The translations under genes were made by a program, and so were the position numbers. This document shows positions 22,397-27,473 of a DNA stretch of 64,000 nt, piece after piece. The stretch is from Steroidobacteraceae bacterium (lineage in GTDB: Bacteria > Pseudomonadota > Gammaproteobacteria > Steroidobacterales > Steroidobacteraceae), in NCBI GenBank assembly GCA_046347195.1, contig JAXMGQ010000028.1, positions 1 to 64,000 on the forward strand. Reading direction: 5' to 3'. How positions within the stretch are numbered: position 1 is the stretch's first letter; the number at the start of each line of letters is the position of its first letter. A model generated the notes under the pieces. It did no database searches and was not told the DNA's origin. It saw nothing but the letters and a program-made list of their open reading frames with translations.

Positions 22397-22484
22397 GTAC
22401 AGGTGGCTCCATGGCACGGCTTGCACATCGGATGCCGTACATTATGGCAATAGATATCAATATCTGCCAGTTTCCAAACTTACT

Positions 22485-22518
22485 GTACGTCCTTGACGTA
22501 TATCCGTCAAAGACGTAC
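22485..22518. promoter_or_regulatory. 34-bp imperfect palindrome GTACGTCCTTGACGTATATCCGTCAAAGACGTAC immediately upstream of higB2 (candidate HigA operator)
   Basis: The nested inverted repeats GTACGTC…GACGTAC and TTGACG…CGTCAA are read directly. They end 9 nt before the higB ATG in an AT-rich intergenic patch. Confidence 0.35.
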
Positions 22519-22526
22519 ACTAGATC

Positions 22527-22847
22527 ATGTTCACGGTGATCGAGACTCCGACGTTCACCCGCCTGTGGCCTGATTATTGGTCAGAGGATGACCGCGGGGA
22601 GTTCGTGGCCTGGTTGGTGGCCAATCCGGAGGCCGGAGACGTCGTGAAGGGTTCCGGCGGGTGCCGAAAGGTTCGCTGGGCGCGGCCCGGAACTGGCAAG
22701 CGCGGCGGTGTGCGGGTTATTCACTACAACCGGCTAGCCAGCGGTGTGATCTACCTGCTGCTGATCTACGCCAAAGGCGTGCAGGACTCGATTCCGGGAA
22801 AGACCTTGTTGAAGATTCGGGAGACCCTCGATGGTGAAGATGACTGA
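22527..22847 (+). CDS. higB: type II toxin-antitoxin toxin, HigB-2/RelE-ParE superfamily
   Basis: It aligns closely with the HigB-2 pattern (…GDVVKGSGGCRKVRWARPGTGKRGGVRVIHY…YLLLIYAKG…). GC content is lower than the surrounding sequence. Confidence 0.8.
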   Translation: MFTVIETPTFTRLWPDYWSEDDRGEFVAWLVANPEAGDVVKGSGGCRKVRWARPGTGKRGGVRVIHYNRLASGVIYLLLIYAKGVQDSIPGKTLLKIRETLDGEDD

Positions 22848-23145
22848 AAGGAAACTGCGCGCACGCGACCGCAAGCGCGATCTTGGCGCCGAGCTTCTCG
22901 CCTCTGTCCGGGAGATGAAGGCTGGCAAGGTGGGTCATGTCCACGAGGTCAGGATGTCGGCCGTGGCCGAAGCGCGCACCCGCGGTGGCTTCTCGCAGCA
23001 GGAGTTTGCCAGCCTGATGGGCGTCTCCAAACGCACACTGCAGGAGTGGGAGCAGGGGCGTCGCAAGCCGACCGGTGCCGCGCGGACGCTGCTCAGCTTG
23101 GCGGTGAAGCGACCGGAAGTGCTGAGGGAATTGGTGGAAGGCTGA
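22831..23145 (+). CDS. higA: HigA-2-type antitoxin (HTH)
   Basis: It overlaps the toxin stop by 17 nt. The motif GFSQQEFASLMGVSKRTLQEWEQGRRKPTGAARTLL is typical of HigA-2/NadS-like antitoxins. Confidence 0.75.
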   Translation: MVKMTERKLRARDRKRDLGAELLASVREMKAGKVGHVHEVRMSAVAEARTRGGFSQQEFASLMGVSKRTLQEWEQGRRKPTGAARTLLSLAVKRPEVLRELVEG

Positions 23146-23282
23146 TCCGGGCGCGGCGATCAACTGGGCAACGGGCGCTCGGCTTCTACCTCAACTGGTA
23201 TGAAGGCCAAACTGGCCACTTGCCTGCCAGCTGCTACCCTTGCGCATCAGTTGTGCCGAGCGGCGCGCCCGGGAGGTATCGA

Positions 23283-24539: not shown

Positions 24540-24543
24540 CGCC

Positions 24544-25305
24544 GTGTCGAAGCTCAAGGGACTGGCATGGCTGGGCCTCGCCGCCGGCATCGGCGTCATC
24601 GCCGCTGTCGGCCTGCCGCGGCTGGCGCGGCACATTCCCTGGAGCGTCGAACGCCGGCTGGCTTCCCTCGGCGACGGACTGGAGGATCATGTCCTCTGCA
24701 AGGACGCGAGTGGCCCTTCCGGCCTTGCCCTCGCGCAGCTCGTGCGGCGCCTGTACCCCTTGAGCGGAGAGGACCGCGAGGTCCCCATCTCCATCGAAGT
24801 GGTCAAGGGAGAGACCGTGAATGCCTTTGCGACGCTGGGCGGGCGCATCTACGTGTACGACGGGTTGCTGCAGCAGGCGCAGTCCCCGGAAGAGCTCGCC
24901 GGCGTCCTCGCGCATGAGATGGAGCACGTGCGCCAGCGTCACATCATCCAGGGCCTGGTCGTCTCGCTGGTGACCTGGGGAGGGCTGAAGGCCATCTTCC
25001 AGACCGGCGACAACGGCGCGACCCACACCCTCCTGTCGCTGAGCTTCAGCCGGGAGCAGGAAGGGGAGGCCGACGAGGGCGGGCTCGAGCGGCTGCGCTC
25101 GGCCAGCATCGATGCCTCCGGGTTCGCGAGGTTCTTCGAGCGGGCCCGCAAGATGGCTTCCGCGCCAGCCATCCTGTCGAGTCATCCTTCGGATGAGGAT
25201 CGTGCCGCACGGGCGGCGCGGTTCACCGGCTATCCGACCCGGCCGGTGCTCACGGAGGAACAGTGGCGCGCCTTGCGTGCCATTTGCAAGCCTCAGGCAC
25301 CCTGA
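24544..25305 (+). CDS. M48-family Zn-metallopeptidase (HtpX/Ste24-like), membrane anchored
   Basis: It has an N-terminal TM segment, …NAFATLGGRIYVYDGLL…LAGVLAHEMEHV (HExxH), a downstream EGEAD third ligand and a C-terminal SHPS…R. It starts 4 nt after the ybjQ3 stop. Confidence 0.75.
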   Translation: MSKLKGLAWLGLAAGIGVIAAVGLPRLARHIPWSVERRLASLGDGLEDHVLCKDASGPSGLALAQLVRRLYPLSGEDREVPISIEVVKGETVNAFATLGGRIYVYDGLLQQAQSPEELAGVLAHEMEHVRQRHIIQGLVVSLVTWGGLKAIFQTGDNGATHTLLSLSFSREQEGEADEGGLERLRSASIDASGFARFFERARKMASAPAILSSHPSDEDRAARAARFTGYPTRPVLTEEQWRALRAICKPQAP

Positions 25306-25421
25306 ACCTCAGGCACCCTGGCAATCTCGCCGCGCCCGCGACGCAGGCGTATCATCCGGCCGGATATCCCGACATCCCGCGGGTCGCGAAACAACGAACG
25401 ACAACAGGGAAGGTGGCCCTC

Positions 25422-27458
25422 ATGGAATTCCTCATCGATCACTGGCGCGTCATCGCGATCAGTGTGCTGCTGGCCGTGCTGCTGATCGGCTATCGCTTCG
25501 TGCTGTGGCTGTTCGGCGTCATCGTGGTGCCGGACGACAGCATCGGTGTCGTGACCAAGAAATTCGTGCTGTTCGGGAAGAACCAGCGGCTGCCGGACGG
25601 CCGGATCGTCGCGCTGAACGGCGAGGCGGGCTACCAGGCCGATACCCTGGCGCCCGGCCTTCACCTGGGCCTGTGGCCCTGGCAGTACAGCGTGGAGCTC
25701 GCGAAGTTCTGCACCATCCCGCCGGGCAAGATGGGGTGCGTCGAGGCCTGCGATGGCGAGCCGCTGCCCAGCGGGCGCATCGTCGCGCAGCGCGTGGCCT
25801 GCGACTCCTTCCAGGATGCGCGCGCCTTCCTGCAGAACGGCGGACAGCGGGGCCCGCAGATGTCGCTGATCGCGCCGGGCACCTATCGCATCAACACGCT
25901 CCTGTTCAGCATCACCCTGTTCGATGCCAATGTCGTGCCGCCGGGGAAGATCGGCGTCATCGAGGCGCGTGACGGCAAGCCGCTGAGCGGCGGCCGCGTC
26001 ATCGCAAGGCACGTGGACTGCGATTCCTTCCAGGATGCCTCGGCCTTCATGGCCGCCGGCGGCGAGCGCGGGCCGCAGATGGCCATCGTCTCGCCGGGAA
26101 CCTACCGCATCAATCCCTACCTGTTCTCGGTGCAGATCGCCGACATCACCGACATCCCCGATAACAAGGTGGGCATCGTCACCACCCGCGAGGGCATCTC
26201 GCTGTCGTCCGGGGAGATCGCAGGGCCGGTGGTTCCCGGCCACAACATGTTCCAGAGCCCGCAGCTCTTCGTGGATGGCAAGGGCACCAAGGGCCTGCAG
26301 GAACAGGTGCTGCTGGCCGGCCGCTACTTCATCAACCCGCGCTTCGCCACCGTCGAGATCGTCGACATGACCGAGGTGCCCATCGCCCACGTGGGCGTGG
26401 TCATCGCCTACGTCGGCCGGGAAGGGAAGGATGTCACCGGCGACACCTTCCGCCACGGCAACCTCGTGTCGCGCGGCGAGAAGGGCGTGTGGGTGGACCC
26501 GCTCGACCCGGGCAAGTATCCGATCAACCCGTACACGCACAAGGTCACCAATGTGCCGACCGCGAATGTCGTGCTGAACTGGGCCACGGGCAAGTCGGAG
26601 GCGCACAACCTCGATGCCAACCTCTCGACCATCACGGTGAGGTCGGCCGATGGCTTCAAGTTCAACCTCGACGTCTCGCAGATCATCCACATCCCGCGCA
26701 ACGATGCGCCCAAGGTCATCGCCCGCTTCGGCGGCATGTCGGCGCTGGTCACGCAGGTGCTCGAACCCACCATCGGCAACTACTTCCGCAACGCCGCGCA
26801 AGGGTCGGACATCATCGACTTCCTCAAGAACCGCTCGGTGCGCCAGGGCGAGGCGCGCGAGGCGATCTCCGCGGCGCTGAAGGAGTACAACGTCGGCGCG
26901 GTCGACACGCTGATCGGCGACATCGTTCCGCCGGACGAGCTGATGAAGACGCTGACCGACCGCAAGATCGCCGAGCAGGAGCGCGTCACCTACGAGACGC
27001 AGCGCGGAGCCCAGGTGGTGCGCCAGCAGCTCGAGCAGGCCACGGCGCTGGCAGCCACGCAGGCCAAGGTGGTCGATGCCGAGCGTCAGGTGGCGATCGC
27101 GGATTTCAATGCGCAGGCCAACGTCAAGCTGGCGGAAGGCCAGGGCAAGGCGAAGAAGATCAATGCCGAGGCCGACGCCACCGTGGTGCGCACGGTCGGT
27201 GAGGCCGAGGCCTCCAAGACCCGTGCGGTGGGCAGCGCAGAGGCCGAGGTGGTGAAGCTCAAGATCGCCTCGATGGAATCGGGCAACTACGCCATGGTGC
27301 AGGTGGCCGAGGCGCTGGCGAAATCCGGCGTCAAGCTGGTGCCCGATATCGTCGCGGGTGGCGGCGCTTCGGGAAGCACACTGGTGGATGTGTTGCTGGC
27401 GAACGTGATCCGCGACAGCTCGCGAGCCAACGGCTCGCCCGCGTTGCCCAAGCCCTGA
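25422..27458 (+). CDS. flotillin/SPFH-domain (YqiK-like) membrane protein with internally duplicated beta segments and C-terminal EA-rich coiled coil
   Basis: An N-terminal TM segment and an SPFH start (VVPDDSIGVVTKKF…PGLHLGLWPW) are followed by duplicated segments (CDSFQDA…GPQM…PGTYRIN…), then a flotillin-like tail (…AEADATVVRTVGEAEASKTRAVGSAEAEVVKLK…). The RBS is AGGGAAGG. Confidence 0.7.
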   Translation: MEFLIDHWRVIAISVLLAVLLIGYRFVLWLFGVIVVPDDSIGVVTKKFVLFGKNQRLPDGRIVALNGEAGYQADTLAPGLHLGLWPWQYSVELAKFCTIPPGKMGCVEACDGEPLPSGRIVAQRVACDSFQDARAFLQNGGQRGPQMSLIAPGTYRINTLLFSITLFDANVVPPGKIGVIEARDGKPLSGGRVIARHVDCDSFQDASAFMAAGGERGPQMAIVSPGTYRINPYLFSVQIADITDIPDNKVGIVTTREGISLSSGEIAGPVVPGHNMFQSPQLFVDGKGTKGLQEQVLLAGRYFINPRFATVEIVDMTEVPIAHVGVVIAYVGREGKDVTGDTFRHGNLVSRGEKGVWVDPLDPGKYPINPYTHKVTNVPTANVVLNWATGKSEAHNLDANLSTITVRSADGFKFNLDVSQIIHIPRNDAPKVIARFGGMSALVTQVLEPTIGNYFRNAAQGSDIIDFLKNRSVRQGEAREAISAALKEYNVGAVDTLIGDIVPPDELMKTLTDRKIAEQERVTYETQRGAQVVRQQLEQATALAATQAKVVDAERQVAIADFNAQANVKLAEGQGKAKKINAEADATVVRTVGEAEASKTRAVGSAEAEVVKLKIASMESGNYAMVQVAEALAKSGVKLVPDIVAGGGASGSTLVDVLLANVIRDSSRANGSPALPKP

Positions 27459-27473
27459 GCCGGCGGAGGCCCG

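Follow-up and report, generated by a model that had tools for sequence, protein, structure and literature searches.

A tail-anchored triple-YbjQ protein and a single-pass M48 peptidase encoded as an obligate gene pair in a Steroidobacteraceae genome

Do genes that lie side by side on one strand, next to a toxin-antitoxin (TA) pair, belong to one system? This question is raised by a stretch of 64,000 nucleotides (hereafter the window; G+C content about 68%) from contig JAXMGQ010000028.1 of a Steroidobacteraceae bacterium (assembly GCA_046347195.1), in which five plus-strand open reading frames (ORFs) lie between an ArnT-like glycosyltransferase gene and a pdeM–lhr–ligase operon (Table 1). They encode a HigB-2-like toxin, a HigA-2-like antitoxin, a tail-anchored protein made of three YbjQ domains (YbjQ3), a zinc metallopeptidase of family M48 and an SPFH (Band_7) membrane protein. 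A first reading of the region, made from the letters alone (the sequence-only reading), had proposed that the last three proteins form one membrane-associated system. Its description of the genes was borne out: the five co-directional ORFs are present at the coordinates that it gave, the gaps of 4 bp between YbjQ3 and M48 and of 116 bp between M48 and SPFH are exact, and profile or phmmer matches back each domain architecture (triple YbjQ, M48 peptidase, SPFH/Band_7 and HigB-2/HigA-2). Hydropathy also agrees with the membrane anchors that it had assigned to all three larger proteins, with a C-terminal transmembrane (TM) helix in YbjQ3 and N-terminal ones in the M48 and SPFH proteins. The proposed system itself was not retained in other genomes, where only the pair formed by the YbjQ3 and M48 genes is conserved.

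To describe this linkage, we used 111 loci, 31 of them from genomes (each species represented by one genome, YbjQ3 as protein query) and 80 from metagenomes. The M48 gene directly follows YbjQ3 in all 31 genome loci, which are spread over no fewer than 8 named lineages. Named hosts comprise Steroidobacteraceae, Burkholderiales, Gallionella/Sideroxydans, Bdellovibrionota, Geobacteraceae, Planctomycetales, Omnitrophota, Rickettsiales and FCPU426, and every named host in the linked clade is a diderm. The link also held in the other direction: a reciprocal look-up that started from M48, with two homologues of 63% and 51% identity, found YbjQ3 directly upstream, and four further look-ups agreed on the adjacency, often with overlapping stop and start codons. 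YbjQ3 is strongly constrained, with 60-87% identity across phyla, compared with 36-70% for its M48 partner. The tight linkage of these two genes was rightly noticed in the sequence-only reading, and no paper on a YbjQ–M48 pairing was found in the literature searched.

When the combined set was sorted by identity to the window protein, linked and unlinked loci separated sharply. At 58% identity or more, all 45 loci encode a YbjQ3 with a TM tail (17-residue hydropathy of 2.3-3.3) and an adjacent M48 gene, with 1-41 bp between the two genes in 44 cases; in the remaining one, the fragmentary L095, the genes seem to overlap in the alignment, and the locus looks frameshifted. At 57% or less, M48 was not found anywhere in any of the 64 loci; for 49 of them the sequence extends 1 kb or more downstream. 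Some 50 of these 64 encode soluble proteins of ~370 aa that lack the TM tail, and another 8 are tailed, likewise without M48. The linkage thus sets a single membrane-anchored clade apart within a larger family of triple-YbjQ proteins, for which a search of representatives at 50% identity gave 81 clusters (E ≤ 1e-30).

Some individual loci of this family have features of their own. At L008:7776-10022, the YbjQ3 frame is broken, with the tblastn alignment split at residue ~334, and an ORF of 748 aa begins within YbjQ3 and continues across M48; a frameshift in the assembly of this MAG is the most likely cause, not a genuine fusion. Two triple-YbjQ paralogues lie in tandem at L065:1-2182 and at L119:2171-5089, both in the unlinked soluble clade. 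A triple-YbjQ homologue with a TM tail and no M48 neighbour is encoded at L044:4001-5227 (also in L045 and L046; protein P0377). Its database translation has Trp where the family has Gly, and the locus does not give the query under translation table 11; because Trp is printed for Gly, the host would read UGA as Gly, a code of the Gracilibacteria/Absconditabacteria type (Candidate Phyla Radiation-like).

Around the pair, the neighbourhoods change from locus to locus. The 129 ORFs flanking it in the 45 linked loci matched 158 Pfam families, none of them present in more than three ORFs, and no Band_7, NfeD, TA or defence theme was seen among these ORFs. Clustering of neighbour ORFs in the linked and unlinked clades gave only out-of-frame shadows of the pair or sporadic families, and no conserved neighbour gene was found around the unlinked YbjQ clade. 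In three related metagenome-assembled genomes (MAGs) of Gammaproteobacteria (L014, L020 and L021), the pair stands immediately beside convergent mnmE and yidC genes (TrmE_N/MnmE_helical and YidC_periplas/60KD_IMP in Pfam, 3 ORFs each), which probably reflects lineage synteny rather than a functional link. Operons of functionally related proteins that do not interact are common, and the two genes might accordingly share a promoter and act independently, for instance as separate envelope- or metal-stress proteins that form no complex. Such an explanation would suit the annotation of YbjQ as 'heavy-metal-binding' and the fact that M48 is a zinc enzyme. We consider it improbable, since the linkage is strict both ways, persists through at least 8 lineages and ever-changing neighbourhoods, and goes together with the TM tail and with TM residues whose conservation is clade-specific in YbjQ3 as in M48.

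We then come to the SPFH gene, which is a neighbour of the pair in the window genome only. In the window, the YbjQ3, M48 and SPFH genes are adjacent and co-oriented, all three products are membrane-anchored, and neither a promoter nor a terminator was predicted in the 116-bp gap between M48 and SPFH. SPFH proteins scaffold membrane proteases, as in HflKC–FtsH and stomatin–NfeD. On these grounds the three proteins could be a single module for membrane surveillance or abortive infection, with M48 and YbjQ in place of the NfeD partner and with the TA genes as the flag of a defence or stress island. The comparison with other genomes makes this highly improbable. Low-stringency phmmer and tblastn searches found an SPFH relative in none of the 111 YbjQ3 loci, so the trio is not conserved outside this genome, and SPFH, HigB and HigA are in none of the 31 genome loci. 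The orthologues of the SPFH protein in other Steroidobacteraceae, 84-90% identical, are solitary: the five contexts recovered, which fall into four unrelated neighbourhoods, have catalase-peroxidase/PAP2, DUF6701/esterase, SRAP/esterase or peptidase S58 as neighbours, and YbjQ, M48 and NfeD were not found near the orthologues in any of the five. No conserved adjacency of the SPFH gene with any partner was therefore seen, and the idea that M48 and YbjQ stand in for NfeD had to be abandoned. A likeness to the SPFH–NfeD operons (stomatin/STOPP, QmcA–YbbJ, YqiJK and FloT–NfeD2) and to HflKC–FtsH does exist, in that a membrane protease goes with an oligomeric, membrane-attached partner and that the window also encodes a genuine Band_7 protein. 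However, the SPFH protein of the window has no conserved partner, the conserved partner of the protease is YbjQ and not SPFH, and NfeD is not present.

The same site in a collinear sister MAG of the Steroidobacteraceae (L002) is occupied differently. There, the ArnT gene is followed by 133 bp, the YbjQ3–M48 pair, 684 bp with a 202-aa minus-strand ORF, and PdeM–Lhr. The ArnT/YbjQ3 junction takes 1.3 kb in the window, with the possible parDE wreck and higBA, versus those 133 bp, and the M48/PdeM junction takes 2.2 kb, with the SPFH gene, versus 684 bp. Since L002 has the same flanks without them, the TA genes and the SPFH gene are indels specific to a lineage, each at a variable junction beside the conserved operon. 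The M48–pdeM slot corresponds to 25237-27482 in the window and to L002:9942-10625, and the 202-aa ORF of L002 appears SnoaL/NTF2-like by eye. HigB and HigA were not found in any of the 111 related YbjQ loci: the TA pair is a local insertion that is not linked to the YbjQ3–M48 module elsewhere. Since the TA pair and the SPFH gene are unrelated local insertions, the three-protein system is not supported by these sequence comparisons.

Searches aimed at defence and mobility gave the same picture. A scan of all five proteins with PADLOC-DB v2 gave no defence hit: it returned no match for YbjQ3, M48 or SPFH, and only generic helix-turn-helix (HTH) matches for HigA. Full-length YbjQ3 was not found in the plasmid and phage collections, which gave single-domain YbjQ matches only, below 60% identity. 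An unusual base composition, which the sequence-only reading had considered for the region, was seen in the TA patch alone (G+C of 0.60 over 22001-23000 versus ~0.68); the YbjQ3, M48 and SPFH genes are genome-typical. There is thus no sign of defence or mobility for the YbjQ3–M48 pair, and the abortive-infection reading was not upheld. Adjacency and nearby TA genes can suggest a 'system' which comparative genomics dissolves.

YbjQ/UPF0145 is a very widespread family whose structures were solved about two decades ago, and in the literature searched no function has been established for any of its members. YbjQ3, which agrees residue for residue with database protein P0001 over its whole length, has a GGGAGG ribosome-binding site upstream of its start codon. 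It matches PF01906 in three stretches with 151 bits, and both its profile match and its fold are those of YbjQ/UPF0145. A three-domain alignment places the YbjQ domains at about aa 13-111, 132-229 and 247-346, and a packed segment, LPPQAxIQDRETFVD, comes after them at aa 357-371. The AlphaFold2 model (pLDDT 78, pTM 0.75) contains the three domains, a linker that is disordered at aa 364-388 (364-395 when taken into the start of the helix) and the C-terminal TM helix, past which only 2-4 residues extend. Within the TM region, Q394, G396, P397 and F409 are clade-specific conserved residues; cysteines number 3-7 per protein.

This architecture differs from that of single-domain YbjQ/UPF0145 proteins (DUF74; PDB 2GTC, 1VR4, 1Y2I and 3QKB) by its three tandem copies and its TM tail, and a whole-chain fold search with YbjQ3 gave single-domain DUF74 matches only, with no analogue of the three-domain arrangement. 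In all three solved entries of single-domain homologues, there are 5 chains per entry. Among the representatives, we also observed a natural five-domain YbjQ protein (P0426, 627 aa) and a four-domain one (P0454, 460 aa); the five YbjQ domains in the P0426 chain equal the five-chain content of the solved single-domain entries. At the other end of the molecule, a His occurs among the last five residues in 44 of the 52 M48-linked YbjQ3 proteins (alignment A1; 24525-24536 in the window), at a tip beyond the TM helix that would be periplasmic. If M48 lies close to the membrane, this His might conceivably come near its zinc site.

The M48 peptidase is 100% identical to an NCBI MAG protein, scores 94.1 bits with PF01435 (cut-off 20.3) and has a single TM helix. 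Its active site is intact. The protein follows the family pattern H-E-x-x-H-x(30,140)-H-P-x(4)-R, with the HEMEH motif, Glu173 within FSREQEGEAD and the plug HPSDEDR, and H124, E125, H128, E173, D177, H214, P215 and R220 are invariant across 51 homologues. The HPx4R active-site plug is conserved throughout PF01435, is a defining feature of M48 and is autoinhibitory in BepA (PMC7950410). Because HExxH, the Glu ligand and the plug are invariant, the enzyme is predicted to be active and plug-regulated. Also invariant are Cys52 and Cys248, and 49 of the 51 homologues have exactly two cysteines. In the TM region of the same 51 homologues, G6, W9, L24, P25 and A28 are conserved, followed by an invariant P32-W33-x-x-E36.

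The AlphaFold2 model of the peptidase (pLDDT 88) and its sequence pointed to the same relatives: the closest matches are the minimal M48 of Geobacter (PDB 3C37, E 2.7e-29) and BepA (E ~1e-19), with a Foldseek probability of 1.0. With 3C37 and with BepA, LoiP and YcaL, the periplasmic quality-control proteases of E. coli, it shares the HExxH…E…HPx4R active site and, within it, the autoinhibitory plug motif. In contrast to these enzymes, its N-terminal TM anchor looks uncleaved and has conserved residues, its two cysteines are an invariant pair and its gene has that of YbjQ3 as an obligate partner; the protein matches the protease domain of BepA only, without the tetratricopeptide repeat domain, and it has no lipobox, unlike LoiP and YcaL. 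It is neither a BepA nor a LoiP by the equivalog models, with 86.6 bits versus 570 for NF052400 (BepA) and 60.3 bits versus 365 for NF052399 (LoiP), and its N-terminal segment is without Cys. The peptidase had been called HtpX-like, and like HtpX it is an M48 protease anchored in the inner membrane. But HtpX is multi-pass whereas this protein has one TM helix, and the NCBIfam HtpX equivalogs gave 17.9-29.5 bits against cut-offs of 245-422. Because of these low scores and the single helix, HtpX-like is not the best description, and BepA, LoiP and 3C37 are nearer.

Altogether, we think it probable, on balance, that the region is a mosaic and that its YbjQ3–M48 module works as an inner-membrane complex. 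The higB-2/higA-2 pair, together with the possible parDE wreck, would have been inserted between the ArnT-like gene and the next operon, and this operon would be an ancient, self-contained two-gene YbjQ3–M48 module. Its first gene would give a cytoplasmic three-YbjQ protein held at the inner membrane by the C-terminal TM helix, and its second gene, 4 bp on, a small zinc protease of family M48 anchored by a single TM helix at its N-terminus; the SPFH gene, YqiK-type and solitary, sits at the variable junction before the pdeM-lhr-ligase operon. YbjQ3 and M48 may associate via parallel TM helices, and the conserved residues in both TM regions are the pattern that would be expected of a specific helix–helix contact. 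The catalytic domain of M48 would face the periplasm, as in BepA, LoiP and YcaL, and would degrade misassembled envelope proteins. Across the membrane from it, in the cytoplasm, an oligomerising YbjQ platform would hold the protease in clusters, stabilise it or act as its gate. Such a logic would be analogous to that of HflKC–FtsH or stomatin–NfeD, with unrelated parts.

As judged from the sequence of the protease, an N-in/C-out anchor with a periplasmic catalytic domain is quite likely; it is favoured because BepA, LoiP and 3C37 are the best matches, the cysteine pair is invariant, as against 3-7 cysteines in the cytoplasmic YbjQ3, the N-terminal flank is the more positive one (+2.7 versus +1.5 for the flank after the TM helix), all named hosts are diderms and the homologue with UGA read as Gly lacks M48. 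If M48 faced the cytoplasm instead, it could cut the juxtamembrane linker of YbjQ3, which is Ser/Ala-rich (SAASA[RK][RK]xQxGP), and free a soluble YbjQ oligomer as a signal. This regulated-cleavage switch would account for the fact that M48 is linked only with TM-anchored YbjQ3, most unlinked relatives being already soluble, and it fits the disorder of linker 364-395 in the model and the recurrent small-residue/basic motif just before the TM helix; HtpX shows that a cytoplasm-facing M48 domain is possible (PMC7950410). We nevertheless regard it as rather unlikely: the nearest M48 relatives are periplasmic and the HtpX models give 18-30 bits, an exact and invariant pair of cysteines is what exported proteins typically have, the bias in charge speaks for N-in/C-out, and comparable Gly/Ala/Ser-rich linkers are found in TM-bearing homologues without M48.

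Several points weigh against the inner-membrane complex of YbjQ3 and M48 as we propose it. The YbjQ3–M48 interaction, the periplasmic orientation and the quality-control role with its substrate class are deduced indirectly, and the positive-inside signal of M48 is weak. A periplasmic protease whose partner exposes 2-4 residues to the periplasm also implies that any coupling must pass through the TM helices. Finally, given the 116-bp gap without a predicted promoter or terminator, the SPFH gene is possibly co-transcribed with YbjQ3–M48 in the window genome.

With these points in mind, we put forward tentatively that the pair may be an undescribed trans-inner-membrane module of diderms, in which a cytoplasmic, oligomerising YbjQ platform would assemble or gate a periplasmic zinc protease via TM contacts and in which the C-terminal His tip may reach the protease.

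Table 1. Features of the five-gene stretch and its flanks, with positions in the window
Feature	Position	Strand	Evidence or remark
ArnT-like glycosyltransferase gene	20225-22006	-	left neighbour of the five-gene stretch
Possible decayed parDE remnant	22013-22396	-	three-frame translation
AT-richer divergent promoter/operator patch upstream of higB	22441-22521		predicted sigma-70-like sites
higB-2-like toxin gene, 106 aa	22527-22847	+	phmmer to HigB-2 structures
higA-2-like XRE/HTH antitoxin gene, 104 aa	22831-23145	+	HTH_3, E 1.4e-9
YbjQ3, tail-anchored triple-YbjQ protein, 418 aa, GTG start at 23283	23283-24539	+	PF01906 in three stretches
YbjQ3 TM helix, aa 393-418	24459-24536	+	hydropathy
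Single-pass M48 Zn-metallopeptidase, 253 aa	24544-25305	+	PF01435, motif check
M48 TM anchor, aa 4-28	24553-24627	+	hydropathy
M48 Cys52	24697-24699	+	invariant
M48 HEMEH, aa 124-128	24913-24927	+	motif
M48 HPx4R plug HPSDEDR, aa 214-220	25183-25203	+	motif
M48 Cys248	25285-25287	+	invariant
YqiK/COG2268-type SPFH (Band_7) membrane protein, 678 aa	25422-27458	+	Band_7 profile
pdeM–lhr–ligase repair operon	27474-32207	-	converges on the five-gene stretch from the right

The TA pair next to the module is of the HigB-2/HigA-2 type II kind. The HigB-like protein matches the V. cholerae HigB-2 structures 5JA9, 5JA8 and 8A0X (phmmer E 1.4e-15) and reaches 21.6 bits with Pfam PF06296, under the gathering score of 27; the HigA-like protein has MqsA/NadS-type C-terminal HTH matches besides HTH_3, and its gene shares 17 nt with higB. 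Toxin sequence, toxin-first order, overlapping genes and an HTH-XRE antitoxin are all as in V. cholerae HigB-2/HigA-2. The window pair differs in that the membrane genes next to it are unrelated to it and in that no related locus carries it. Upstream of higB, three sigma-70-like sites are predicted in the AT-richer patch versus 0.6 expected. The parDE remnant described for this side consists of a truncated ParD-like ORF of 25 codons (22319-22396) and ParE-like fragments in two frames, and the region is missing from the syntenic L002. A hand-joined fragment gave a weak ParE_toxin match (E 0.068, 14 bits) and the raw ParE and ParD ORFs had no Pfam match; the parDE remnant, which lies outside the conserved module, is therefore a possible one with weak support.

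The SPFH protein is 100% identical to the NCBI entry 'SPFH domain-containing protein [Steroidobacteraceae bacterium]' and scores 103.9 bits with Band_7 (PF01145; cut-off 23.6). Its N-terminal TM helix is present, and the duplicated segments that had been noticed in it are real: an internal duplication of ~73 aa scored 252 versus a shuffle mean of 22±4. It does not belong under the flotillin FloT model NF058507 (17.6 bits versus 700), its homologues are named YqiK by JGI, and no PDB sequence match was found at E 1e-3.

On the right flank, PdeM matches the NCBIfam profile TIGR04123 with 186.7 bits (cut-off 150). Further to the left, a long ORF at 16021-19806 (-), which reaches 1261 aa if the first possible start is used, resembles by eye a methylmalonyl/isobutyryl-CoA mutase fused to a MeaB-like GTPase segment (IcmF-type), and a gene that is TetR-like by eye lies divergently next to it, at 19555-20247.

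The new element is a membrane protease with what would be a dedicated, oligomeric YbjQ partner, and the YbjQ3 architecture was not in the papers searched. The obligate, phylum-spanning link of a membrane-anchored YbjQ clade to an envelope-type M48 is a testable lead for both proteins. If the proposed complex is true, the few regulated membrane proteases on record would gain a new type of partner, and the large UPF0145/YbjQ family, so far uncharacterised, would have its first lead to a function.

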